DNA of 64,000 bases from Syntrophobacter sp. (GTDB lineage: Bacteria > Desulfobacterota > Syntrophobacteria > Syntrophobacterales > Syntrophobacteraceae), in the NCBI GenBank assembly GCA_039679945.1, contig JBDKTY010000067.1, forward strand, positions 2,414 through 66,413. The letters run 5' to 3'. The stretch's first letter is position 1. Every line of letters begins with the position of its first letter. A program made the translations under genes and the position numbers. Positions 25,321-38,488 of this stretch are shown piece after piece. The notes under the pieces were generated by a model. The model made no database searches. It was given only the letters and a program-made list of their open reading frames with translations, and was not told the origin of the DNA.

Positions 25321-26775
25321 ATGGCGGGATTTGAACTTAAACAGCAACTGAAATTGAGCCAGCAGCTCATAATGACCCCGCAGCTCCAGCAGGCCATTAA
25401 GCTGCTGCAGCTATCGAGGTTGGAGCTTCTCGAGACCATTAACCAGGAACTCGAAACGAACCCCCTGTTGGAAGAGACTCAGGAAGAACTTCCCACCGAA
25501 CAGGATGCTGAGCTGGAAACCCTCACCAATACCGAAACTCCCTTCCAGGAAGTGCAGCTCTCGGAAACAAAGATAAGAGAAGACTTCGATTGGGAAGGCT
25601 ACCTCGACGAATACAACACGAGTACTCCCGTCCTTGTAGAGACCGATCCCAACCAGGAATGGCCCAGCTTCGACAGCCGATTGACCGAACCCACGACCCT
25701 GGAAGACCACCTTGTCTGGCAGCTTCGCCTCTCCGACTGCAACGAGCAGGAAAGGGAAATCGGCGGCACCATCATAGGCAACCTCAACAAAGATGGCTAC
25801 CTGGAAGCGACGATTGAAGAAATCGCCGAAATGACGGGAGCTGACACGAGCAAGGTTGAACAGGTCCTGGCAAGGGTGCAGACTTTCGACCCGACCGGTG
25901 TCGCCGCGAGGGATCTAAAGGAATGCCTTCTGATCCAGGCCAGGGCGCTGGAGCTTGAAGATCCGCTGGCTGTCCGCATCATAGAGGATCATCTCCATTA
26001 CCTCGAAACAAAGAACTACGCCGCGCTCGTCCGCACGCTGAAGCGAAGCCCCGAGGAAGTCAAGGCAGCGGTGGAAATCATCCTCGGACTGGACCCGAGA
26101 CCCGGAAGCGCCTTCAACAAGGAAACCGTTGAGTATATCAGCCCCGACATATACGTTTTCAAGGTCGACGAGGAATGGGTGATACTGCTCAATGAAGACG
26201 GAATGCCCAAGTTGAGGGTCAGCCCCTACTACAAGGATGCCCTTGGAGAGGGGGAGTCGCTTTCAAACGATACCAGGGACTATATCCAGACGAAGTTGCG
26301 CTCCGCCGCATGGCTGATAAAGAGCATCCACCAGAGACAGCGAACCCTCTACAAGGTTTCCCACAGCATAGTAAAGCTCCAGTCGGACTTTTTCGAAAAG
26401 GGCGTGGCGCACCTCAAGCCCATGGTGTTGCGCGACATAGCCGAAGACGTCGGGATGCATGAATCCACCATCAGCCGGGTTACCGCCAGCAAATACATGC
26501 ACACGCCGCACGGAATTTTCGAACTCAAATACTTCTTCAACAGCTCCATAAACAGCGTCATGGGTGAGGCCGTCGCCTCGGAAAGCGTAAAGGAGCGGAT
26601 TCGGCAGATAGTGCGGGAGGAAAATTCCTCAAAACCGTACAGTGACCAGGAGATAGTGGAGATTCTTGAGAAGGAAAATATCAGCATTGCCCGGCGCACG
26701 GTTGCCAAGTATAGGGAAATGCTGGGTATTTTGCCATCCAACAGACGCAAGAAAACTTGCTGGGGCCCCTCCTGA
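25321..26775 (+). CDS. rpoN: RNA polymerase sigma-54 factor
   Basis: Region I LKLSQQLIMTPQLQQAIKLLQLSRLEL and RpoN box ARRTVAKYRE. Confidence 0.96.
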   Translation: MAGFELKQQLKLSQQLIMTPQLQQAIKLLQLSRLELLETINQELETNPLLEETQEELPTEQDAELETLTNTETPFQEVQLSETKIREDFDWEGYLDEYNTSTPVLVETDPNQEWPSFDSRLTEPTTLEDHLVWQLRLSDCNEQEREIGGTIIGNLNKDGYLEATIEEIAEMTGADTSKVEQVLARVQTFDPTGVAARDLKECLLIQARALELEDPLAVRIIEDHLHYLETKNYAALVRTLKRSPEEVKAAVEIILGLDPRPGSAFNKETVEYISPDIYVFKVDEEWVILLNEDGMPKLRVSPYYKDALGEGESLSNDTRDYIQTKLRSAAWLIKSIHQRQRTLYKVSHSIVKLQSDFFEKGVAHLKPMVLRDIAEDVGMHESTISRVTASKYMHTPHGIFELKYFFNSSINSVMGEAVASESVKERIRQIVREENSSKPYSDQEIVEILEKENISIARRTVAKYREMLGILPSNRRKKTCWGPS

Positions 26776-26978
26776 TGGGTATCATGAGGTTGCTTGGGTC
26801 CGGCTTAGACGATTCCAGTCGGGCAGGGTTTCGGCCTGCCCGGTATACACATCGCGCCCCGCTGCCGTTCCATTTCACAGGGTTGCGGGAGCATGCGGCT
26901 AAAGTTGGAAAGTTCTCACCGCGCCGCGTGCAGCGTTGGATCGGCGATAGCTGAAAACAGCGTCTCAGGAGAAATGCC

Positions 26979-27521
26979 ATGCAGATTAACGTTTCGTTCC
27001 GCCACATCGAGGCATCCGACCCCTTGAAGCTCTATGCCGAGGACAAGATTTCCAGGGTCAAGCGATTTCTGAAGGAGCCAATAGAAGCCCACGTGGTGCT
27101 TAAGGTCGAGAAATTCCGGCATATAGCCGAAGTATCGATCGATGCTCCGGGTCTGCACCTGAACGGGGCCGAAGAAACCGACGACATGTATTCGAGCATC
27201 GACTTGCTTGTGGACAGTTTGGAGGGGCAGGTCAAGAAGGGCAAGAGCAAGGTCATGCGGCGCCGGCCGGCCGGGTTTGACAAGGAATCGGCGGTGCAGG
27301 CCGAGCCCGCCGGCGAGTCGATAGCGGCGGAAGACGAGGAACAGCGTATAATCAGGGCCGAGCAGGTCTACGCAAAGCCCATGGACCTGGATGAAGCTGT
27401 CATGCAGCTCAATCTCACAACCGGTGAATTCATCGTCTTCACCAACCGAAGAACGAACAGGATAAACGTCCTGTACCGCAGAAAAGACGGCAATCTCGGT
27501 CTTATCGAAACGGTTGGATAA
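26979..27521 (+). CDS. hpf: Ribosome hibernation promoting factor (long form)
   Basis: MQINVSFRHIEASDPLKLYAEDKI... plus a C-terminal dimerisation domain FIVFTNRRTNRINVLYRRKDGNLGLIE. Confidence 0.9.
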   Translation: MQINVSFRHIEASDPLKLYAEDKISRVKRFLKEPIEAHVVLKVEKFRHIAEVSIDAPGLHLNGAEETDDMYSSIDLLVDSLEGQVKKGKSKVMRRRPAGFDKESAVQAEPAGESIAAEDEEQRIIRAEQVYAKPMDLDEAVMQLNLTTGEFIVFTNRRTNRINVLYRRKDGNLGLIETVG

Positions 27522-27762
27522 AGGAGAATGAAGCGGTCATCGCGGCAGTTGACCGCAAATAAAAAGCGAGCAAATTATTTCTAAATTTTAATACATCCGG
27601 TACCGTTTTTGAATATAATCATGGGGCGGGAATCCTTTTCCGCCCTGATTCAATTAAGGTGTTGAGAGTCCAGGGGATCGGGATCGCTTTTTGCGGCCCG
27701 TGGTTTTGTTTTTCCCCTTAGAATTCCGATATCACATATTCTAGTGCCGACAGAGGGGCTTG

Positions 27763-28224
27763 ATGAAAATTCTCGATATCCTGGCGATGGATTCCATAGT
27801 TCCCGAGCTTAGAGGCAGGACCAAGAAACAGGTTCTCGAAGAGCTGATAGACGCAGTCATGCATCATAAGCCGCAAGTGGACCGGGAACGGCTCATGAAG
27901 GTGCTTCTCGAAAGAGAAAGACTGGGAAGCACGGGGATTGGGGACGGGATCGCCATTCCGCACGGCAAACTCAAAGATATCGACGAGCTGGTCCTGTCTT
28001 TCGGACGCTCGACCGAGGGGATCGACTTCGAATCCATGGACGGGAAGCCGGTACATCTCTTTTTCCTCCTTGTGGCCCCCGAGACCTGTTCCGGGATACA
28101 CCTGAGGGCGCTGGCCAGAATAGCCAGGTTGTTGAAAAACGGGATGGTACGCAAGCGACTTGGAAAAGTTGACAACCGGGAAGAGATATTCTCTATTATT
28201 CAACAGGAAGACGAGGATTTCTGA
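27763..28224 (+). CDS. ptsN: PTS IIA-Ntr nitrogen regulatory protein
   Basis: ERERLGSTGIGDGIAIPHGK contains the phospho-accepting His motif. Position is downstream of rpoN-hpf. Confidence 0.88.
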   Translation: MKILDILAMDSIVPELRGRTKKQVLEELIDAVMHHKPQVDRERLMKVLLERERLGSTGIGDGIAIPHGKLKDIDELVLSFGRSTEGIDFESMDGKPVHLFFLLVAPETCSGIHLRALARIARLLKNGMVRKRLGKVDNREEIFSIIQQEDEDF

Positions 28225-28355
28225 CTGTGCTCGTTCCGTCATGAGGAGAACCGGTAAGGATCTCTCCCCTCATTTCGGGGTCCGGCCCCCTGTTCTCCGG
28301 TAGGTTTCGCGCCTCGGCCCGGGGCCGGTCTCAGTCGAGATCCGAGGAAATTCAA

Positions 28356-29231
28356 ATGACAGCAGGAAAGCCGCATGTCGTGGTGGTCACCGGACTTTCG
28401 GGTTCCGGAAAGAGCACCGCTATCAAAGCGTTCGAAGACATTGGCTATTTTTGTATCGATAATTTGCCGGTGCCTCTTCTGGGCAGCTTCCTGTCGTTGT
28501 GCGAAAGGGACATGCCCGACATAACCCGGATAGCGCTGGGCATCGATATCCGGGAACGCAGCTTTCTCAAGGACTACCACTCGATTTTCTCCGACCTCGA
28601 ACACACGGGTTACAGGTTCGAAATACTCTTTCTCGAAGCGGATGACGACATTCTCCAGCGACGCTACAGCCAGACGCGGCGCGTGCATCCGGCCGCCGAT
28701 TCCGATTCCCTGCTCTTGAATGCCATCCACAACGAACGCGAACAGCTCAGCGTGCTGCGCGGCCGGGCCTCGCGGCTGGTTGACACGGGCGCCCTGTCGG
28801 TGCATCAGCTCAAGCAGATGATCACCAGGCGCTACTCGCACATGAATGAAAAGGAGCAACTCAGCATCCAGGTGATCTCGTTCGGCTATAAATACGGACT
28901 TCCGTTCGAGGCCGATCTGGTAATCGATGTGAGATTTCTTCCGAACCCCTATTTCGTGGAGGATCTCAGGTTTCGCGACGGCTGTTCGGAACCCGTCAGG
29001 GAGTGGGTGTTGAAATGGCCCGCTGTCCACGAGTTTCTATCCGACTACTGCTCGCTTGTACTCAAACTACTGCCCTGCTACATTGAAGAGGGGAAACGAT
29101 ACCTGACGATTGCTGTCGGGTGTACCGGCGGAAAGCATCGCTCGGTTGTGATCGCCGATCAGATCGCGGAAAGACTTCGGCGCAACAGCTATTACCTGAG
29201 CGTATTCCACCGGGATATACATTTGGAATGA
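28356..29231 (+). CDS. rapZ: RNase adapter / nucleotide-binding protein RapZ (YhbJ)
   Basis: VVVTGLSGSGKSTAIKAFEDIGYFCIDNLP and C-terminal AVGCTGGKHRSV. Confidence 0.92.
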   Translation: MTAGKPHVVVVTGLSGSGKSTAIKAFEDIGYFCIDNLPVPLLGSFLSLCERDMPDITRIALGIDIRERSFLKDYHSIFSDLEHTGYRFEILFLEADDDILQRRYSQTRRVHPAADSDSLLLNAIHNEREQLSVLRGRASRLVDTGALSVHQLKQMITRRYSHMNEKEQLSIQVISFGYKYGLPFEADLVIDVRFLPNPYFVEDLRFRDGCSEPVREWVLKWPAVHEFLSDYCSLVLKLLPCYIEEGKRYLTIAVGCTGGKHRSVVIADQIAERLRRNSYYLSVFHRDIHLE

Positions 29232-29686
29232 GAGGGACTCAATTGGGTGGCGGAAACGACAAGGCCCTCATCGGAGTTATAGCCATTTCCCACTGCAAGT
29301 TAGCTGAAGAAATGCTCAAGGTGGCCGAGATGATAGTCGGCCCACTGCGGAATTGTAAGGCGATTTGCTTCGGGCCCGAACAGCCGGTGGATGAACTGAT
29401 CAAACTCCTCAGGGATACGCTCAAGGAAGTGGACCAGGGCAAGGGTGTCCTGATCCTGACTGATTTATTCGGCGGAACACCGGCCAACATCAGTCTGTCA
29501 TTTCTGGGACCGGGTGTGGAGGTTGTTTGTGGAATGAACCTGCCCATGCTGATTAAACTCGCCGGCTGCCGCGGCGGCCATTCGCTGCGGGAAACGGCGG
29601 CCCTGGTGAAGGAGTATGGGCAGCGGCATATCACACTTGCAAGCGAAGTTCTCTCACGCTCGGTGAAAACAGCATCATTGCCGTAA
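29228..29686 (+). CDS. PTS EIIA component, mannose/fructose family
   Basis: LIGVIAISHCKLAEE is the N-terminal His motif, and LTDLFGGTP is also present. ATGA overlap with rapZ. A TTG at 29243 is an alternative start. Confidence 0.8.
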   Translation: MRGTQLGGGNDKALIGVIAISHCKLAEEMLKVAEMIVGPLRNCKAICFGPEQPVDELIKLLRDTLKEVDQGKGVLILTDLFGGTPANISLSFLGPGVEVVCGMNLPMLIKLAGCRGGHSLRETAALVKEYGQRHITLASEVLSRSVKTASLP

Positions 29687-29698
29687 CCGGACAAGACC

Positions 29699-30196
29699 GT
29701 GGGCATCGAAATCACCATCTCACCTCTTGACGAAACCGATATTCCCTCAGTCGTGGAGATCGAAAGGCAGAGCCAACTGGAGCCGTGGTCGGAGCAGTCT
29801 TTCCTTGAGGAACTCGAACGACTGCATTCCCATATGCTGGCGGCAAGGCTCGGGCGCGACGCCGTAACAGCGAACCGGACCTGGACAGCGGGCGAGGCCG
29901 CGGGATACATCTGCTACTGGTGCGTGGCGGATGAAATCCAAATCCTTAACATAGCGGTACATCCGGACTTCAGAAGGCAGGGCATGGCCGGCGCCCTGCT
30001 CGCCCATGCCATCGAAAGGGGCCGCGAGAAGAAGGTCATGCTGGTCACCCTGGAGGTACGGAGGAGCAACGACGCGGCCCGCCGGCTGTATGAGTCCTTC
30101 GGCTTCAAGGTGGTCGGAGAACGGCCCAACTACTATGGGGCGCCCGTAGAGTCCGCCATACTGATGGAACTCGAAATACTGAAAAACGATGTTTAG
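29699..30196 (+). CDS. rimI: Ribosomal-protein-alanine N-acetyltransferase (GNAT)
   Basis: ILNIAVHPDFRRQGMAGALL...LEVRRSNDAARRLYESFGF...ERPNYY. Confidence 0.85.
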   Translation: MGIEITISPLDETDIPSVVEIERQSQLEPWSEQSFLEELERLHSHMLAARLGRDAVTANRTWTAGEAAGYICYWCVADEIQILNIAVHPDFRRQGMAGALLAHAIERGREKKVMLVTLEVRRSNDAARRLYESFGFKVVGERPNYYGAPVESAILMELEILKNDV

Positions 30197-30202
30197 ATCG
30201 AA

Positions 30203-30360
30203 ATAGCATTCAAGACGCCACTGTTCCCGACCGTATCATGCAGAGTGAGCAAACCCCGCATGCGCGTGATAGAGCGCGGGGAACAAACAGCGTTGCATCC
30301 ACGCACCCCTGGCCCGTTCCACCCTTCGATACCTCTCAAGAAACAGCTTTTGAGAGGTAG
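30203..30360 (+). repeat. Mosaic of partial intergenic repeat units
   Basis: AAACCCCGCATGCGCGTG (30251-30268) is identical to 48641-48658. CCCGTTCCACCCTTCGATACCTC (30313-30335) matches the core of the 128-nt repeat. This is followed by hairpin CCTCTCAA/TTGAGAGG. Confidence 0.5.
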
Positions 30361-30405
30361 TAAAATCAAGGACTTATGGCATTGGTTGGAACCATGAATA
30401 ATCAC

Positions 30406-30597
30406 TTAAGCATGTTGAGCTTCGAGGGGTTCAATGCGGTACCCCAATGCTTTGGCCTTGCGCTTAAGATAGTTCAGGGTTCTTTTATGCATCATCTGGT
30501 CATAATGTTCCTGAGAACGCTCAGTGCGAACGGGGGTAAGTCCGCTTTCACATGGTGGTTTGATACTATTCGGAGCGAGCTTTTTTTTGAGAGGCAT
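30406..30597 (-). mobile_element. Probable C-terminal remnant of an IS110-family transposase
   Basis: The tail ...QEHYDQMMHKRTLNYLKRKAKALGYRIEPLE resembles, from memory, the conserved IS110-family C-terminus (..Y..R......L.R.L..LGY.V.LE). There is no room for the catalytic N-terminal part. Confidence 0.4.
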
Positions 30598-30666
30598 CGA
30601 AGAACGAGCGCTATTTTGAACTCAACCCGGTATGGAACCTGATTCCGCAAAGAGGTAATCCTTTTC

Positions 30667-33600
30667 ATGGACCAAGAACAGATTCAGTCAGATGCCCTGA
30701 CCAGAAACATGGACCTCACCAATATCCACGTGGAAATCCCCTATTGCTTCATAGTGCTGGAGCAGGCGGTGGCGGGATTTTCCGGAAAAGAAAAACAGGC
30801 ACGGGAGCTTCTGCTTGAATACCACCACAAATACAGGAACTGGCACTTTGTGGTGCAGGAAACGCAACGGTATGCGATCAACAATCTTCGCCTGTACCAG
30901 AATAGTCCTCTATGCGGCAATGTCGTCTATCTTCTTGCCAGCATATTCCTCCATGCACTCACGGAATCGGAACGGTTCGAAATCCGAGGCATGGCCGCGG
31001 ACCATCTTCTATCCTACCTCATGAAGCTGACGGAGCAAATGCCCCGGGAAATGGCCCGGCCCATGCCGGAAGGGACGTCCCTGGATGACCTGGAACGCAT
31101 CTTCGAGACGGACACCTCTTTTCATCAGGGGATCATACGATACTATCTTCGACGGCTCGCCGACCTGCCGGATGCCCCATTCGAATTCCTGATGCGCAGC
31201 TTCTACCCGCCCAAACGGCTGGCGGCCCAACTGCTCTCGATTTGGGAAGATCCCTCTTCTTTCGAGGAACTCAGGGCACTCCTGCAAAGATTTTACAGAG
31301 AAACCTATCTTTTCTGGCTCGACAGGGAAGATCCCTGTGAGTGGCTGGCGGCTCAGAAGCAGGAATCTTCCTCTCCCGTTCCCTGGCTGAAGGACTGCGC
31401 ATCGTTGACGCACGCGCAACTCCAGTCGCATCTCGACAGGATCGGCAATGAAATCTCGCTGGAAGCCGATCACCGCAAGGCCGTGGCGATGCTCATCGAG
31501 ATGACCGATTTTCATGACATCACGCAGCTCTACTTCCAGTTGCCCGACAAGTTCTCGCAATACCAGGAAGAGTGCCCCCAGGCCGCTCAACTGGGCATGC
31601 TCATGCGCCTCAAGGTGATGGAGATCAAAGGGCTTGAGGCGATTCATGAAGAAACGCTCAGGGAAATCAATTTCGAAATCGGGAGGTGGATCAGGCAGGA
31701 AGCACGCGATAAGCTGGAAACGCTACTGGAGCGCATCTTCAGCATCATGGAGATCTCGCTGCGCAACTATCCCCAGGCAGCCGTCCAGATAATCCGCACT
31801 ATCGGCATGGAGATCCTCGAAACAAACGATCGCCCCCTTATAGACTACTTCATAAAACGCATAATCCGCCTGGGCTTCCAGCCCCCCATGCTGGGCCAGG
31901 TAAGCCAGCACTGGCAGATTCCAGTAAACCCGGCGCACCTTCCGAACGTGCGGGTCTGGATGGACATCATAAAGAAAGACCCGTTGCGCACCCGCGCGCT
32001 TCTTTCCGCTCTCATCGTGAACCTTTCGCTGGGCGGCATTTTCGTGCGGGACACCGACCTCTTCCAAAAGGACGTGAGTCAGCTCCTCAACGCTCCGATG
32101 CGCCCCGTGTACAACCTCGTGAAACAGCTCGCGAAACTTTTTCCCGTCTACTTCAACGAGATCGGAGCCGAGGGTCAGCTCCGGACGGTCTCCACGGACG
32201 TGGATGAAATCACCGGCAGAAGCGACAGGCTCATCCATTTCCTTCGCAAGCAGAGCCACGTGGAAAGCAACAATATCGTTGTGGCCTTCATGCAGGCCAT
32301 AATCGAATATTGGCGCACGATGGACAAAAGCCATCTCGAGGGGTTGATCCCGGCCGAGGTCTACATGGAAGTCCCCGAATCCGGCCCACTGGTGGAGCAC
32401 ATCCACAAAATCTTCGAATTCATATTCAGCACGCGCACCATCAACCATGTCCAGGACCTGCTCGACCTCACCGAGCAGGAGGCGAGGCAACTGATCGGCA
32501 AGGCGCCGGATTCCGTGCCGGAAACGGAGCGCAGGCGCGCCTTCCTGATGATCCAGTTCTACCAGTTGCTCCACGAGAAATACGCGCTGAGCTTTAAGGA
32601 CATCCAGGTGCATCTGCACCGCGCGATGACCCTGGGCCTTCCTGATCCCGGAAGACTTCTTCAGGCGCTGAACAGCAATGACAGGTTGGAAAAACTCGAA
32701 AACATCCTGGACTACCTGATGGAGTTAAGAGAGGTAATCCTCACCCCGGGCGAACTGCGCATAATGGAAAATATCTACTACAAGCGTCATATCGCCGTGG
32801 ATATTCCCTCCATGTACGGCTCCTACAATGAACCCCGCTTCGACGCCCTGGGGCTGACCTTTCGCCTGGAGAACCTGGCCAATGTGCTCTTCGAGGAGAT
32901 TATCCTCTCCTTCAATCTCAGCTTCATAACAAGGGCCACCTTCTTCCGGATCGCCCGGTTCATCCCTCTCTTCATGAAAGCGCTGGAAATCGACGGGATA
33001 ACATCGAACCGGCTCGAGCTCCAAAAGAAGCTTTTCCTGAAAGCCCTGGAGGTACCGAGATTTTCTCACTCGCAGTACATGGATCTTTTCAGGGGGTTCT
33101 CGGAAGCCATTAAACAGATCATCCAGACCAACTACGACGCGGTGCACGACGAGACCCTGGAACTCATAATCAGGCAGCTCGGCCGGGACCGGCTGCTCGC
33201 CAGGTACCAGAGAGAGGGGGAAACCGCGGCCGAGAGAAACCAGCGGGTCTCGGAGAGTTTCCTTCGGGACATCATCGCCCGCACTTTCGGTCTCCAGTAT
33301 TTCGACCATTTCATTACCAGTATTCTCACCACGCTGGCCACGCAGCGGGAGGAGCTGAGCACCGAGAAGCTGGACCTGCTCCTGAGCTACGACCCGGAAA
33401 AAACGGCTACCGACCTTCACTCCCCCAACCCGACCACATTCGACCTCATCTACATGGGGAGCAAAGCCCACACCCTGGCGCAGCTTCATTCGATCGGGAT
33501 AAAGGTTCCCCCCGGCTTTGCGATTACCACGGAGTATTTCCGATGCAGGAGCGTCATCGAGAGCTTCTCGCATTCGCGGGAAGAATTCGAGGGACGGGTC

Positions 33601-34941
33601 ATGGCGCTCGTGCGCAAGGTCGAGGAGGAAACCGGGCGGCAGTTCGGCCTTCCAGGGAATCCGCTCCTGTTTTCGGTCAGATCCGGCGCCGCCGTGTCCA
33701 TGCCGGGAATGATGAACACGTTCCTCAACGTTGGCATCAACGAGGAGATAGTCGAAGGATTGATCGCACAGATGGGTCAGGCCTGGTTTGCCTGGGACAA
33801 CTACAGGCGATTCATCCAGTCCTGGGCCATGTCCTTCGGCATGGCGAGAGACGAGTTCGGCACCATAATGAACCAGTTCAAGAAAAAATACGGGCGGCAG
33901 GTGAAGCGGGAATTCTCACCCGCCGAAATAAAGGAACTCGCCCTCGCCTACCGCGCCGCGATGCTGGAACATGGGATCGAGTTCTCGGATTCCCCGCGCG
34001 AGCAACTCTTCACGGCCATACAGCAGGTGGTCAAATCCTGGGATGAGGACAAGGCCAAAACATACCGGGAGATCATGATGCTTTCCGAGGACTGGGGCAC
34101 CGCGGTGACCGTTCAGACAATGGTTTTCGGAAATCTCGATACACAGTCCGGGGCCGGGGTGATGTTCACGCACAATCCCTGGACTTCGGAGGACAAGGTG
34201 GACCCGATCGGCGACTTCACCTGGGGCAACCAGGGCGAGGACGTGGTGGGAGGGCTCGTCAAGACCCTTCCCCTCTCGGAAAAACAGCGGCTCGGCGAGG
34301 GGGAACGCAAGGAGACCTCCCTCGAAGTGCTTTTCCCCAGGGTCTACAAGCGGCTTAACGATATCGCCAGGAAGCTGGTTTACGAGGAGAGCTGGGCGCC
34401 ACAGGAAGTGGAATTCACCTTCCAGGGAGCAACCGAGGAGGGAGTCTACCTTCTGCAGTCACGAAACATGACGCCGCGCATCAAGCGATCCTACCCCGTA
34501 TTCAAGGCCACCGAAAACCTCCACGACAAGTACCTGGGAAGCGGCATCGGCGTGAGCGGAGGGGCGCTTTGCGGCATGGTGGCCTTTGACCTGGAAACCA
34601 TACGACTGCTCAAGGAAAAATACCCCGACAAGCCCATCATTCTCATCCGGTCGGATACCGTTCCGGACGATATACGCGAGATTTCCGTCGCGGACGGGAT
34701 ACTCACGGGCAAGGGAGGCGCGACATCTCACGCCGCGATTGTCGCTCACAGGCTCGAGAAGGTATGCGTCGTCGGCGTGAGCAGAATGCGGGTATGGGAG
34801 TCGGAGAAAAGGTGCATGATCGACGGCACGCAACTCAATACCGGCGATACTATCGGAATAGACGGCAGAAGCGGCGCTATCTATTCGGGTTTGCTCGAGA
34901 CCGAGCAGGTGCACGTCGAGGACAGCGCGAATTATGATTGA
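30667..34941 (+). CDS. 1424-aa protein: unknown ~880-aa helical N-terminal region fused to a PPDK-type ATP-grasp nucleotide-binding domain and a phospho-histidine swivel domain
   Basis: From ~residue 905: GSKAHTLAQLHSIGIKVPPGFAITTEYF, LLFSVRSGAAVSMPGMMNTFLNVGIN, AWDNYRRFIQSW. The swivel motif GKGGATSHAAIVAH has its His codon at 34729. Only 69 residues follow, so there is no PEP/pyruvate TIM-barrel domain. Confidence 0.9.
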   Translation: MDQEQIQSDALTRNMDLTNIHVEIPYCFIVLEQAVAGFSGKEKQARELLLEYHHKYRNWHFVVQETQRYAINNLRLYQNSPLCGNVVYLLASIFLHALTESERFEIRGMAADHLLSYLMKLTEQMPREMARPMPEGTSLDDLERIFETDTSFHQGIIRYYLRRLADLPDAPFEFLMRSFYPPKRLAAQLLSIWEDPSSFEELRALLQRFYRETYLFWLDREDPCEWLAAQKQESSSPVPWLKDCASLTHAQLQSHLDRIGNEISLEADHRKAVAMLIEMTDFHDITQLYFQLPDKFSQYQEECPQAAQLGMLMRLKVMEIKGLEAIHEETLREINFEIGRWIRQEARDKLETLLERIFSIMEISLRNYPQAAVQIIRTIGMEILETNDRPLIDYFIKRIIRLGFQPPMLGQVSQHWQIPVNPAHLPNVRVWMDIIKKDPLRTRALLSALIVNLSLGGIFVRDTDLFQKDVSQLLNAPMRPVYNLVKQLAKLFPVYFNEIGAEGQLRTVSTDVDEITGRSDRLIHFLRKQSHVESNNIVVAFMQAIIEYWRTMDKSHLEGLIPAEVYMEVPESGPLVEHIHKIFEFIFSTRTINHVQDLLDLTEQEARQLIGKAPDSVPETERRRAFLMIQFYQLLHEKYALSFKDIQVHLHRAMTLGLPDPGRLLQALNSNDRLEKLENILDYLMELREVILTPGELRIMENIYYKRHIAVDIPSMYGSYNEPRFDALGLTFRLENLANVLFEEIILSFNLSFITRATFFRIARFIPLFMKALEIDGITSNRLELQKKLFLKALEVPRFSHSQYMDLFRGFSEAIKQIIQTNYDAVHDETLELIIRQLGRDRLLARYQREGETAAERNQRVSESFLRDIIARTFGLQYFDHFITSILTTLATQREELSTEKLDLLLSYDPEKTATDLHSPNPTTFDLIYMGSKAHTLAQLHSIGIKVPPGFAITTEYFRCRSVIESFSHSREEFEGRVMALVRKVEEETGRQFGLPGNPLLFSVRSGAAVSMPGMMNTFLNVGINEEIVEGLIAQMGQAWFAWDNYRRFIQSWAMSFGMARDEFGTIMNQFKKKYGRQVKREFSPAEIKELALAYRAAMLEHGIEFSDSPREQLFTAIQQVVKSWDEDKAKTYREIMMLSEDWGTAVTVQTMVFGNLDTQSGAGVMFTHNPWTSEDKVDPIGDFTWGNQGEDVVGGLVKTLPLSEKQRLGEGERKETSLEVLFPRVYKRLNDIARKLVYEESWAPQEVEFTFQGATEEGVYLLQSRNMTPRIKRSYPVFKATENLHDKYLGSGIGVSGGALCGMVAFDLETIRLLKEKYPDKPIILIRSDTVPDDIREISVADGILTGKGGATSHAAIVAHRLEKVCVVGVSRMRVWESEKRCMIDGTQLNTGDTIGIDGRSGAIYSGLLETEQVHVEDSANYD

Positions 34942-34975
34942 TCCCGACCGATAGTGAACGGCTCCCGGGATCTCG

Positions 34976-35003
34976 AAAAAGCGGGGGAATCGGATTCCCC
35001 CGC
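34976..35003 (-). terminator. Rho-independent terminator (minus strand; possibly bidirectional)
   Basis: GCGGGGGAAT-CGG-ATTCCCCCGC is a 10-bp stem, with TTTTT following on the minus strand. Confidence 0.6.
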
Positions 35004-35058
35004 GACTCTCCGCGCTTTTGAAAAGCTTGAACAACATCTTCTCGGACGCGATCCCGGG

Positions 35059-35223
35059 TCATTTGCCGAGCATGGCATCTTCGTTTCTTTTCTTTTCCTT
35101 CAGCTCGAACTCATTCGGTCCCCAGCTTCCATCGTTGCACTGAATACACTGGTCTCCAATGCACACGCCGCCGCCATGGGGATACGTCCTGTCCTGAAAC
35201 TCGCAACTCTTCTTCTCCGCCAT
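35059..35223 (-). CDS. Small Cys-containing hypothetical protein (54 aa)
   Basis: MAEKKSCEFQDRTYPHGGGVCIGDQCIQCNDGSWGPNEFELKEKK... with a GAGAGG RBS and a terminator downstream. Confidence 0.55.
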   Translation of the reverse strand: MAEKKSCEFQDRTYPHGGGVCIGDQCIQCNDGSWGPNEFELKEKKRNEDAMLGK

Positions 35224-35533
35224 GATTGACCTCTCTTTTCCCAACCGGGGGCTATCGATAATTCCTCCAGGGGCATCAAAGTATTCGCTCCCCAAGAAAA
35301 GCTATTCTTCCAGTATTACATCTCTCAGATAATGTAAGCATAACTTTCCGGAAGCACACGAAACCTCAATGGAAATAACCTTTTCAAGGAACTTCACAAG
35401 CTTGTTCCCCCTTCACCGGGGCCTTACATTGTAGGAAACTGATCTTCACATGATATTCAGGAACGGCCCGGTGAACTCTTACTTCCGCTTCGGCGAAGAG
35501 TGGCTGTTCGGCCGTTCTTGGGGAGGATTCCAT

Positions 35534-35833
35534 ATGATCTACAAGGATGCCATCAATTCGGCAAGCCAGACCGAAAGGGGAGACGACTCCTGGACGGAGT
35601 TCTCGGATTCTTTTCACGCCTCCGTGGGCAGGCTCGGGGAAATGGTCAATGATGTCAGTGAAATGAGGGAGAACTGCCGGGACGAGTGGTGTGACGCGGC
35701 CGAATGCCTGTTGGGCGAGGCCACGACAGCCGCGTTTGCCGTCAGCGAACCACACTGGGCGCTCAGCGAAGATTCGAGGAAACTCAAGGATTTGAAAAAG
35801 AGGATCCACGATCTTCACGGGTCGAAGCACTAG
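35534..35833 (+). CDS. Hypothetical protein (99 aa)
   Basis: A GGAGG RBS lies 7 nt before the ATG. The sequence is helical and acidic. I prefer it over the Arg-rich antisense ORF 35384-36073. Confidence 0.5.
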   Translation: MIYKDAINSASQTERGDDSWTEFSDSFHASVGRLGEMVNDVSEMRENCRDEWCDAAECLLGEATTAAFAVSEPHWALSEDSRKLKDLKKRIHDLHGSKH

Positions 35834-35997
35834 AAGCAGATCATTGATTGGAGGAGGCTTGCGACAAAGAAAACATCGGTGCGCGCGGCAACCGCGCGCG
35901 AAGTTTTTGATACGCATCGCGGCAACCGTTCTCCTCTCGAAGCGCCGGGGGGAGAACGGGCCAGTGCAAACAGATGTGGTCCCTTTCGGCTTTTGTT

Positions 35998-36025
35998 TTG
36001 ACTTTACGCGCGTAAGTTCTAAAAT
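35998..36025 (+). promoter_or_regulatory. Sigma-70-type promoter candidate for the GAPDH-like gene
   Basis: TTGACT, 16-nt spacer, TAAAAT. It lies ~220 nt upstream of the start. Confidence 0.4.
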
Positions 36026-36246
36026 ATCAGTTGCCGCGCAGGTTTTCAGGTTCACCGGACTCCAAAAGCTCAATTTCCTGAAATCACTCGAATGAGTGCA
36101 AGCACCGCGAGAATGTACGATTCCCCGATTTCCCCCCCACCGGCTGGACCGCTGTCTCGGAGGCGCGTCGTTTTCCCGGGACGTGGGTTGCTCGGGATCG
36201 GAATTCCGCTTCTTTTACTTAGTTCCAGATGGATCAGGGAGGCCAC

Positions 36247-37611
36247 ATGGACGAAGAAAAAATGGTTCCACAGAAACTTGGGATTAATGGCCTTGGAAGA
36301 ATCGCAAAACTTACAATCTGGCACCACGTCGAACGAAAGTATTTTTCCGAAATCGTTGTAAATATCGGCAGGGAAGTGGGAACGAAGCTGGAGGACATAG
36401 CTCATTTTATTGAGCATGACTCCACCTATGGGTCTCTGCACAGCTATCTGTACGGATCGCGGGCCAAGAGGTGCATCGAGCAGATCGATGATAAATCGGG
36501 AAGCTTTGTCATCGATGGCGTGAAGGCCACATTCCTGCGCCAGGCGAGAAACCCTTCCCAGATCGGGTGGAAGGGCAATGGCGTGGAACTGGTGGTCGAC
36601 GCGACGGGGGCCTTTCTCGATCCCACGTCCGCGCCGGACGATCCGAAAGGCTCGGCGCGAGGGCATTTGCTCTCCGGCGCTAAGAAGGTGATCGTCTCGG
36701 CTCCGTTCAAAATAAAGGACAAGAGCCGGGAGATGCCCTCGGATGCCATTACCACGGTCATGGGAATCAATGACACGGACTATGATCCCAAGAGGCACCT
36801 GATCGTTTCCAATGCATCCTGCACCACGACATGTCTTGCGTATATGGTCAAGCCGCTTCTGGACTTTTTCGGGGAAGACCGTATCCTTTCCGCGGCCATG
36901 ACCACGGTGCATGCCGCGACCAGTTCGCAGTCAGTCCTCGACCGGGCCCCCAAGGCAAGGGCGACTGATTTGCGCAAATCGCGCTCCGCTTTCAATAACA
37001 TCATTCTGACCAGCACGGGCGCGGCCAAGGCGCTGGGGTTGGTAATACCGGAGATGAAAAAAATCGGATTCATCGCGGAATCCGTGCGTATACCCGTGAC
37101 GACGGGCTCACTCATAATTCTGGCGCTGATGATCCAGGATGAAAGCCTCACGACTCCAATTGGGCGAGAGCTGATTAACAATGTCTACAAGAACGCCGTA
37201 AATCACTTCCCCGAGGGCTATCTCGTCTTTTCCGAAAAACAGAATGTGTCCTCGGATATCATCGGACTGCCCAGGGCAGCGGCGGTGATCGAAGGGGCCG
37301 AGAATCACACCCGGACCTCCGCGGTTCATATAGACGCGGATCGACTGCTGAATGCGATTGCCCTGCTGGATGAGACAGGGGCGCAAAGCGCCATTGCCTC
37401 GACGGATGCCGGTCCTCTGCGCGGACGAGAAGCAGTGAACGGCCGTCCGAAACAGAGAAGATACGTCGAGGTCCCCGTGACCCAGGCGGTAATCTACGGC
37501 TGGTACGATAATGAACTGGGCAGCTACACGAACATGCTGGGCGACCGGGCGGTCAGTATAGCGAAGCTCATGCGCATCGGCGCCTCCGCGCGCGTGCCGG
37601 TGATGGTCTGA
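36247..37611 (+). CDS. Glyceraldehyde-3-phosphate dehydrogenase family protein, long atypical form (~455 aa)
   Basis: NAD-binding LGINGLGRIAKL and catalytic SNASCTTTCL. There is a large insertion before ...YGWYDNELGSYTN and a C-terminal extension. Confidence 0.85.
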   Translation: MDEEKMVPQKLGINGLGRIAKLTIWHHVERKYFSEIVVNIGREVGTKLEDIAHFIEHDSTYGSLHSYLYGSRAKRCIEQIDDKSGSFVIDGVKATFLRQARNPSQIGWKGNGVELVVDATGAFLDPTSAPDDPKGSARGHLLSGAKKVIVSAPFKIKDKSREMPSDAITTVMGINDTDYDPKRHLIVSNASCTTTCLAYMVKPLLDFFGEDRILSAAMTTVHAATSSQSVLDRAPKARATDLRKSRSAFNNIILTSTGAAKALGLVIPEMKKIGFIAESVRIPVTTGSLIILALMIQDESLTTPIGRELINNVYKNAVNHFPEGYLVFSEKQNVSSDIIGLPRAAAVIEGAENHTRTSAVHIDADRLLNAIALLDETGAQSAIASTDAGPLRGREAVNGRPKQRRYVEVPVTQAVIYGWYDNELGSYTNMLGDRAVSIAKLMRIGASARVPVMV

Positions 37612-37870: not shown

Positions 37871-38488
37871 GTGCATAGCGTGATAGTGCGGCATTGGATG
37901 TCATCCGATCTGGTAACGATCAAAAAGGAAGCTTCCATCCAGGAGGCCCTTGCCCTCATGAAGCAGCAATCGATCCGGCATCTCCCCGTGGTGGGTCCGG
38001 ACAAGGAACTGGAGGGCTGGGTCACCGACGCGGACCTGCGTGGTGTCCTCATCGCGTCGATGCTGGAGGAGTTGACACTCGAAGACGTGATGATCCGGAA
38101 GCCATTTACCGGGTCACCGGACATGCCGCTCGAGGAGGCCGCACGCGTTCTCCTGGAAAAGCGGGTGGGCGGATTGCCCGTGGTCGAAAACGGCACGCTG
38201 GTCGGCATAATCACCGTCATAGATATACTGTCGGCCTTCATAACCTTCCTCGGGCTTTTCTCCGATTCTTCCCGCCTCGATGTGAAGGTAGCCGGCGACA
38301 TCAATCCGCTTCCCGAACTGACGCGCATCGTCAAACAGAAAGGCGCCGAGATAATCAGCATCTGCCACCTGCCCACGGAGGGTCAGGAGTACATATATTC
38401 CATCCGTCTCAAGAAAACCGACCTGAAACCGATCATTTCGGACCTCGAGGAGCACGGCATAGAAGTGGATTCGAACTTCGACCTGTGA
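37871..38488 (+). CDS. CBS-pair protein with an ACT-like C-terminal domain (AcuB-like)
   Basis: Two CBS motifs (IRHLPVV..., GGLPVVENGTLVGIITVIDIL) followed by a small regulatory domain. Confidence 0.85.
   Translation: MHSVIVRHWMSSDLVTIKKEASIQEALALMKQQSIRHLPVVGPDKELEGWVTDADLRGVLIASMLEELTLEDVMIRKPFTGSPDMPLEEAARVLLEKRVGGLPVVENGTLVGIITVIDILSAFITFLGLFSDSSRLDVKVAGDINPLPELTRIVKQKGAEIISICHLPTEGQEYIYSIRLKKTDLKPIISDLEEHGIEVDSNFDL

Follow-up and report, generated by a model that had tools for sequence, protein, structure and literature searches.

A giant PPDK-derived dikinase-like protein with an all-alpha N-terminal region and a conserved GAPDH gene partner

Results

The giant gene and its dikinase half

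The DNA analysed here (the window) is a 64,000-nucleotide stretch of Syntrophobacter sp. (contig JBDKTY010000067.1, positions 2,414 to 66,413), and near its middle lies an ATG-initiated open reading frame (ORF) with a product of 1424 amino acids (Table 1), referred to below as the giant gene and the giant protein. The protein is a three-part phosphotransfer machine derived from pyruvate, phosphate dikinase (PPDK), in which the phosphoenolpyruvate (PEP)/pyruvate barrel is absent and an all-alpha region of about 900 residues occupies the other end of the chain. The gene has a conserved partner that encodes glyceraldehyde-3-phosphate dehydrogenase (GAPDH), and this partnership is new information beyond an earlier reading of the same DNA made from its letters and translations (the sequence-only reading).

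Residues 930-1419 align with residues 18-518 of Clostridium symbiosum PPDK (phmmer against PDB sequences, E 3e-79). K22, R92, D321/E323, Q335 and R337 of that enzyme have their counterparts in K933, R1005, E1247/E1249, Q1264 and R1266 of the giant protein, and each of these ATP-grasp residues, like T1353-S1354-H1355, shows either no variation or at least 90% conservation across 35 family members with identities down to 28%. The motifs from which a dikinase had first been recognised are all in place (VPPGFAITTE at residue 947, SVRSGAAVSMPGMMNTFLNVGIN at 1003, DNYRRFIQ at 1044 and GGATSHAAIVAH at 1350), as is the proposed catalytic His1355, which is followed by exactly 69 residues. Judged by its domains and conserved catalytic residues, the engine of ATP-grasp plus swivelling histidine looks intact, and the PPDK half of the protein looks catalytically competent. 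Such an engine would convert ATP to AMP and deliver the beta-phosphate, via phosphohistidine, to an acceptor that sits on another domain.

The ATP-grasp domain ends at residue 1271 and the swivel domain starts at 1322; they are joined by a linker only, with no inserted domain. The PEP/pyruvate TIM barrel is missing, as the sequence-only reading had stated: the giant protein has no match to PEP-utilizers_C (Pfam, E<=1), and more than 120 homologues share its C-terminal end point. A remnant of the barrel 3' of the gene was considered and rejected, the two largest ORFs of the downstream spacer having no Pfam match.

Table 1 Features of the giant gene and its surroundings in the window.
Feature	Position	Strand	Description and support
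Giant gene	30667..34941	+	N-terminal region, PPDK ATP-grasp domain and phospho-His swivel domain; no PEP/pyruvate barrel
Residues 1-397	30667..31857	+	Less conserved helical, solenoid-like part; AlphaFold2 model, generic Foldseek matches
Residues 398-905	31858..33381	+	Conserved core, compact all-alpha domain with one beta-hairpin; alignments, AlphaFold2
Residues 404-550	31876..32316	+	Densest conserved block; consensus and invariant columns
Residues 697-726	32755..32844	+	E.IY.KRHIA.(G/D)IPSMYG.Y.E.(K/R)FD; forms the beta-hairpin (700-721); holds invariant K706, H708, S715, G718
Residues 930-1271	33454..34479	+	PPDK-type ATP-grasp nucleotide-binding domain; Pfam PF01326 (PPDK_N), E 5.8e-35
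Residues 1322-1403	34630..34875	+	PEP-utilizers mobile (swivel) domain; Pfam PF00391, E 4.9e-17
His1355 codon	34729..34731	+	In GGATSH; counterpart of phospho-carrier His455 of C. symbiosum PPDK
GapL gene	36247..37611	+	Partner gene, long-form type I GAPDH, 454 aa; TIGR01534 333 bits against a cut-off of 367
Upstream cluster	25321..30196	+	Same-strand cluster of the six genes below
rpoN	25321-26775	+	
hpf	26979-27521	+	
ptsN/EIIA-Ntr	27760-28224	+	
rapZ	28356-29231	+	
EIIA-Man	29243-29686	+	
rimI-type GNAT	29699-30196	+	

A recurrent family outside the described dikinases

Among 5.8 billion proteins searched, more than 120 full-length relatives were found, 1409-1461 residues long and 61-81% identical; all of them come from Syntrophobacteraceae and allies, the cultured Desulforhabdus amnigena, Desulfoferrobacter suflitae and Desulfacinum hydrothermale among them. 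With residues 1-905 alone as the query, an exhaustive HMMER search detected N-domain relatives in 496 clusters at 50% identity; the complete members are nearly all 1335-1540 residues long and carry the N-domain match at their N-terminus. PPDK_N is present in all 35 of a diverse set of members and the swivel domain in 34. That the ORF might be a fusion artefact had been raised by the sequence-only reading itself; recurrence of the same full-length architecture in more than 120 homologues and across the 35 diverse members rules out both fusion and frameshift. Outside this architecture the N-domain is almost never found: a search for other partners gave hemerythrin extensions only, and the few N-domain proteins with no detectable PPDK part are possibly fragments. 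Two of the 35 members have a hemerythrin domain at the N-terminus. Where family members carry this HHE cation-binding domain, as in P0155, P0169 and locus L087, it spans about 140 residues.

When one genome per GTDB species was scanned by pattern, giant-gene loci were confirmed in at least 588 species genomes; the architecture recurs there at about 1350-1450 aa, with identities down to 28%. The labels of members include Syntrophobacteraceae, Desulfobulbaceae/Desulfobulbia, Desulfobacterales, Thermodesulfobacteriota, Thermodesulfovibrionales/Nitrospirota, Thermodesulfovibrio and Thermodesulfobacterium geofontis OPF15, and metagenome-assembled genomes (MAGs) labelled Miltoncostaeaceae/Thermoleophilia and Dehalococcoidia also carry them. 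A role in sulfate reduction was considered because of the distribution over Desulfobacterota and Thermodesulfovibrio; recycling of AMP and pyrophosphate (PPi) in sulfate reducers is weakened as an explanation by the members in the Thermoleophilia/Miltoncostaeaceae and Dehalococcoidia MAGs.

Scored against family models, the giant protein comes closest to PPDK itself, TIGR01828 being the best NCBIfam model at 380.7 bits, far below its cut-off of 843.45. The short PPDK model NF004531 (PRK05878) gives 292.7 bits against 456, the PEP synthase models TIGR01418 and NF005057 give 74.5 against 739.75 and 87.9 against 598, and the models for dikinases of the type of rifampicin phosphotransferase (RPH), PigC and RedH, NF041857 and NF052631, both give 30.1 bits, against 999 and 1300. 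TIGR01417, for Enzyme I (EI) of the phosphotransferase system (PTS), matches the swivel part only, with 19 bits against 342, and PEP-utilisers_N, the HPr-binding subdomain of EI, was not found in the giant protein by Pfam. By these scores and by its domains the giant protein lies outside every described swivelling-histidine dikinase family compared. Databases name members of its family 'pyruvate, phosphate dikinase' or 'PEP/pyruvate-binding domain-containing protein', and these names mislead, for it is the PEP/pyruvate-binding domain that the giant protein does not have.

A GAPDH gene is the constant neighbour

Neighbourhoods were compared at 83 loci by tblastn and unbiased ORF clustering, and GAPDH adjacency was counted at the 53 loci with at least 1.5 kb of flank on both sides. 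A same-strand GAPDH gene lies no more than 1.5 kb from the giant gene in 42 of the 53, with gaps down to -4..30 nt. The constant neighbour takes two forms: a long GAPDH, here called GapL, encoded directly downstream of the giant gene, or a normal gap gene (334 aa) directly upstream, as in Desulfobulbia. The pairing is often embedded in a longer glycolytic operon. Desulforhabdus and Desulfacinum have a longer run that ends in EIIA(Man)-GNAT-giant-GapL-gap-pgk-tpi-secG; one further locus reads gap-giant-pgk-tpi-secG (L069) and two others giant-GapL-pgk-tpi-secG (L025, L029).

The pairing is kept at 28-34% identity and in unrelated surroundings (L084, L085 of Thermodesulfovibrio, L086, L088). The giant and GAPDH genes overlap by 4 nt in L084, and L086 has the order guaB-guaA-giant-GapL. 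The tightest arrangement is that of a Thermodesulfobacterium geofontis-type locus (L089, 8997-15405), in which a gap gene (333 aa) is separated by 2 nt from the giant gene, which in turn overlaps the GapL gene (415 aa) by 4 nt; the trio stands behind rpoN-hpf-rapZ-GNAT, with neither ptsN nor EIIA-Man. The 2-nt gap and the 4-nt overlap imply translational coupling of gap, the giant gene and GapL.

GapL belongs to a clade of 408-470 residues (the window, L001, L002, L020-L089) that appears uncharacterised. It is 55-62% identical across loci where the N-terminal region of the giant protein is only 36-40% identical. The catalytic Cys (SNASCTT) and His, TVHAAT, STGAAKA, the phosphate-site Arg residues and WYDNE are all kept, and from these residues GapL is probably an active phosphorylating GAPDH that handles glyceraldehyde 3-phosphate and 1,3-bisphosphoglycerate (1,3-BPG). 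Asp32 is replaced (VVNIGR), so that the cofactor preference is perhaps altered, and the clade has conserved insertions of its own (for example 'DPT.P.D.P.GS.RGHL', 'SAPFKIKDKS' and 'IIEG.ETHTRT'). Since the giant gene pairs with either GapL or a normal gap, a metabolite shared between the two proteins fits better than a regulatory site specific to GapL.

In Desulfobulbia a Pfam check gave the gene order aroK-aroC-glycogen synthase-gap-giant. At least 12 loci of this lineage have a gene of the starch/glycogen-synthase family 5' of gap-giant (L031, L039, L050, L062, L064, L066-L068, L070, L071, L081, L082), and the adjacency is limited to it. We take the glycogen synthase gene to indicate a gluconeogenic setting, which counts in favour of a dikinase working with GAPDH (see Discussion). 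The same gene could instead be read as the sign of a polymer dikinase, an analogue of glucan, water dikinase (GWD) whose helical region would bind the polymer to be phosphorylated. In plant GWD the same engine acts on a polymer (PMC13553574). We consider this idea very improbable: neither a carbohydrate-binding module nor a glucan-related family was detected, the domain order is unlike that of GWD, and the glgA adjacency belongs to one lineage whereas the GAPDH adjacency is general.

The sequence-only reading had held that the acceptor could not be predicted from the sequence. That position no longer stands, since the GAPDH gene context (gap or GapL, often with pgk-tpi, in distant lineages) narrows the acceptor strongly.

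The N-terminal region

Residues 1-905 contain 13.4% Leu, 8.7% Glu and 7.8% Arg, in line with the composition first described, and the helical character then proposed is borne out by AlphaFold2 models built with family alignments, which are essentially all-alpha. The model of residues 1-925 (pLDDT 89.3, pTM 0.83) has about 47 helices and a sole beta-hairpin at 700-721; that of residues 398-905 reaches pLDDT 93.8 and pTM 0.91. The part before residue 398 is shorter in some family members and is preceded by the hemerythrin domain in a few.

The region matches no recognised family, as had been thought, and no known substrate domain was found by sequence or fold in the libraries searched. Residues 1-929 have no Pfam match even at E<=1 and none in NCBIfam or PADLOC; a profile search with the core, residues 398-905, gave no Pfam match at E<=10; and neither phmmer nor a core profile search (E>=0.5) found a significant match for the region among PDB sequences. 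With Foldseek against the PDB, residues 1-925 returned generic alpha-solenoids only (CRM1, importins; TM 0.13-0.17) and the core returned no fold match (best E 0.09, TM <=0.17). Foldseek against BFVD gave nothing for the N-terminal region.

Conservation singles out the core. Nineteen N-terminal residues, many of them charged or His, are invariant in 47 sequences: H54, H424, G457, D462, P493, G503, R506, D513, R518, F525, R527, K528, H531, K638, Y639, K706, H708, S715 and G718. All except H54 fall within residues 398-905. The densest block (404-550) contains the motifs GFQxP...WQ..VNPxHL, DTDLFQKD, FPVYFNEIGAEGxLRxVST and HFLRKQxHVESN, and a second conserved block at about 697-735 has the motif IYxKRHIAxGIPSMYGxYxExKFDALG. 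The core is a candidate acceptor or active site.

The rpoN cluster and other local surroundings

On the strand of the giant gene the window reads lptA-lptB-rpoN-hpf-ptsN-rapZ-EIIA(Man)-rimI-giant, then a 1.3-kb spacer, GapL and a CBS-pair protein. Syntrophobacteraceae, together with L020, L029, L069 and L089, have the rpoN block next to the giant gene; most other sampled lineages do not. A tblastn search for an HPr or NPr gene found none in the 64-kb window and none within 10 kb at any of the 83 related loci, and no source of phosphoryl groups for PtsN and EIIA-Man is apparent in these loci.

These surroundings suggest a further role, that of an ATP-driven surrogate of Enzyme I in which His1355 phosphorylates PtsN and EIIA-Man and replaces the PEP-dependent EI/HPr pair in an rpoN-linked 'nitrogen PTS'. 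It would account for the position of the giant gene behind rpoN-hpf-ptsN-rapZ-EIIA(Man)-rimI on the same strand in the window and all Syntrophobacteraceae loci, for the same juxtaposition in L020, L029 and L069, and for the lack of HPr/NPr in the sequences searched, and EI has a swivel domain homologous to that of the giant protein, as the weak TIGR01417 match reflects. We nevertheless consider it very improbable. Most of the lineages sampled (Desulfobulbia, Thermodesulfovibrionales and many Desulfobacterales) have no nearby PTS gene and yet have the GAPDH neighbour; L089 lacks ptsN and EIIA-Man and still has gap-giant-GapL; the EI-specific PEP-utilisers_N subdomain is absent; and an ancestral adjacency of the rpoN cluster to the gap operon may be all that is seen here.

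The spacer before the giant gene (30197-30666) is unusually long at 470 nt; in relatives it reaches about 230 nt at most, and the GNAT gene may even overlap the giant gene. Within the 470 nt lie a 63-aa ORF without a Pfam match (30406-30597, minus strand) and a 9-bp hairpin near 30340-30368. A search for sigma-54 promoters upstream gave 37 matches where 55 were expected, not above chance; a sigma-70 and terminator scan was unremarkable, and no consensus of either type stood out in 30197-30666. The spacer that parts the giant gene from GapL (34942-36246) is insertion-like, the two genes abutting or overlapping in other lineages. It contains small ORFs, such as a Cys-rich one of 78 aa (35059-35295, minus strand) that matches DUF1496 weakly (E 0.004). 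Two strong terminator-like hairpins lie in the same spacer at 34981-35003 (minus) and 35880-35900 (plus). Rfam on 29.5-38 kb gave two sub-threshold matches only, at 33047-33125 and 34930-35008 (snoZ6, 25 bits against 35; CcsR1, 20 against 65), most likely by chance. Directly 3' of GapL lies the gene for the CBS-pair protein (176 aa, 37958-38488, plus strand), which is kept in the closest relatives (L005-L009). Phenylphosphate synthase is another split dikinase and is stimulated by a subunit with CBS domains, and by that analogy a link of the CBS-pair neighbour to adenine-nucleotide sensing is conceivable.

Discussion

We propose that the giant protein is an ATP-driven swivelling-histidine dikinase that works with GAPDH, possibly by converting 3-phosphoglycerate to 1,3-BPG, and we put the probability of this reading at roughly 0.35. 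The choice of 3-phosphoglycerate as the most economical acceptor follows from the gene neighbourhood: the only constant partner is a GAPDH, of either type, which would share its metabolite with the kinase. Pairs of a kinase and a reductase that share an acyl-phosphate are familiar from phosphoglycerate kinase (PGK) and GAPDH, ProB and ProA, aspartate kinase and aspartate-semialdehyde dehydrogenase, and ArgB and ArgC. The proposed reaction would also parallel PEP synthase and fructose-1,6-bisphosphatase, which bypass other glycolytic steps; to our knowledge, the GAPDH-PGK segment is the one part of glycolysis and gluconeogenesis with no known ATP-driven bypass.

In the proposed mechanism His1355 would be (pyro)phosphorylated by ATP on the ATP-grasp domain, as inferred from PPDK, PEP synthase and RPH. 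The swivel domain, held by a single linker as in RPH, would carry the phosphoryl group to a second site, for which the cluster of invariant His, Asp, Arg and Lys residues in the core is the candidate. The reaction, speculatively, would be 3-phosphoglycerate + ATP (+ H2O or Pi) to 1,3-BPG + AMP + Pi (or PPi), or the reverse, and the labile acyl-phosphate would go on to whichever GAPDH, GapL or gap, is encoded alongside. Energy-limited anaerobes would thereby gain an AMP-forming, strongly driven alternative to PGK for gluconeogenesis. In its fully specified form, that of an AMP-forming 3-phosphoglycerate dikinase that bypasses PGK, has an acceptor domain of new fold and hands 1,3-BPG directly to a dedicated GapL, we regard the proposal as unlikely.

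Several observations weigh against a dikinase that serves GAPDH. These can be summarised as (i) about 20% of loci have no adjacent GAPDH gene; (ii) PGK genes occur in the same operons, so that a bypass is not obviously needed; (iii) a helical, partly solenoid-like region of about 900 residues is a commoner feature of scaffolds that bind proteins than of sites for small molecules; (iv) a few members have hemerythrin sensor domains, as signalling proteins often do, and one of these (L087, 1166-5788) has no GAPDH neighbour and is followed by genes for an SH3-domain protein and a GGDEF protein; (v) the acceptor is deduced from gene neighbourhood alone; (vi) literature searches, accession numbers included, returned no paper on the family.

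The main rival is a regulatory, non-canonical histidine kinase or phosphocarrier resembling VadK. Its PPDK half would autophosphorylate, and its helical scaffold or sensor would bind proteins as targets, chiefly the GAPDH or GAPDHs encoded next to it, and tune flux at the GAPDH node. It could do so through the phosphoryl group itself or merely through a conformation that depends on phosphorylation. VadK, a PPDK cut down to ATP-grasp and histidine, autophosphorylates and is a reported partner of methylcitrate-cycle enzymes; the first 400 or so residues of the giant protein resemble alpha-solenoid protein-binding scaffolds, and some members carry hemerythrin sensor fusions. A complex with GapL is suggested by the tight pairing, in which translation is often coupled, and the 'ETHTRT' motif of a GapL insertion could serve docking or modification. 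However, the partner in Desulfobulbia is a gap of normal size without the GapL insertions, the C-terminal half scores below the NF004531 cut-off, and about 19 invariant polar residues across phyla at 28-50% identity look more like an enzyme's active site than a regulatory interface. A phosphoprotein target has not been shown even for VadK. On balance we hold regulation of this kind to be somewhat unlikely. As to the acceptor itself, a protein, as proposed for VadK, is allowed equally with a small molecule.

A third view retains the chemistry of PPDK. The giant protein would still be a pyruvate-to-PEP enzyme, its barrel swapped for a helical acceptor domain, within a gluconeogenesis module whose GAPDH is possibly of NADP type. 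The ATP-grasp and histidine domains are closest to true PPDK, both by TIGR01828 and among PDB sequences, and the database names say the same; GapL lacks Asp32, the residue of NAD specificity. Many of the hosts are autotrophs or users of organic acids that need gluconeogenesis, and gapB and pckA are co-regulated in Bacillus. But neither the PEP-utilizers_C barrel nor any of its motifs has left a trace, and the gene next door encodes a GAPDH instead of enolase, phosphoglycerate mutase or a pyruvate-forming enzyme. Replacement of a well-adapted barrel by 900 residues for the same small substrate also seems improbable. We consider a PEP-forming role quite improbable.

Whichever reading holds, the GAPDH pairing is near-obligate and lies inside a gap-pgk-tpi operon, which points to an undescribed step or control point in central sugar metabolism. 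A new metabolic step and a control of GAPDH by histidine phosphorylation would each alter the reconstruction of central carbon metabolism in these anaerobes. If the proposed 3-phosphoglycerate dikinase were to prove true, it would be a new enzyme of the Embden-Meyerhof pathway and gluconeogenesis in Desulfobacterota, Nitrospirota and other anaerobes. The family is no rarity, with cultured sulfate reducers and thermophiles of small genome among its species-level genomes. If the engine is active, it would be a further offshoot of the swivelling-histidine dikinase design, beside PPDK and PEP synthase, the glucan dikinases, RPH/HpeHI and VadK, with an acceptor-side domain that has no solved structural relative.

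Comparison with known systems

With PPDK (EC 2.7.9.1; C. symbiosum, PDB 1KBL/1DIK) the giant protein shares the catalytic Lys, Arg, Glu and Gln of the ATP-grasp domain, the G-G-x-T-S-H motif of the swivel domain and the order of these domains. The giant protein differs in lacking the TIM barrel, in its unrelated N-terminal region of 900 residues and in having GAPDH as its genomic partner. PEP synthase and EI of the PTS have a homologous swivel histidine domain, and PEP synthase shares the ATP-grasp domain too. Both have a C-terminal PEP barrel, and EI has the HPr-binding subdomain and no ATP-grasp domain; the giant protein is the opposite in these respects.

VadK (Rv1127c; NF004531, PRK05878) is likewise a PPDK that keeps ATP-grasp and histidine without the PEP/pyruvate domain. 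It autophosphorylates on His422 with ATP and Mg2+ and is reported to interact with methylcitrate-cycle enzymes (PMC13400623; bioRxiv 10.1101/2025.10.30.685616). Its autophosphorylation is a precedent for a new role of a truncated PPDK engine. VadK has about 490 residues (490-534 for the type) and no extra domain, and is encoded in Actinomycetes beside methylcitrate-cycle genes, whereas the giant protein has 1424 residues and a GAPDH context.

RPH and the two-component HpeHI/phenylphosphate-synthase type follow the same logic of an ATP-grasp domain, a C-terminal histidine domain on a single tether and an acceptor domain specific to each family. Their chemistry is ATP to AMP + Pi + phospho-acceptor (PMC4844700; PMC12167813). 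In RPH the acceptor domain lies between ATP-grasp and histidine and has another fold; in the giant protein the putative acceptor domain is N-terminal and all-alpha, and the sequence relation between the two is marginal.

GWD is likewise a large multidomain dikinase (StGWD1 is described as of 'high molar mass'; PMC13553574). The giant protein resembles it in having the same engine and a long N-terminal region, which in GWD serves substrate recognition. GWD has about 1400 residues, its histidine domain precedes the nucleotide-binding domain, and its N-terminal modules are starch-binding CBM45 domains. Pfam detected no such modules in the giant protein.

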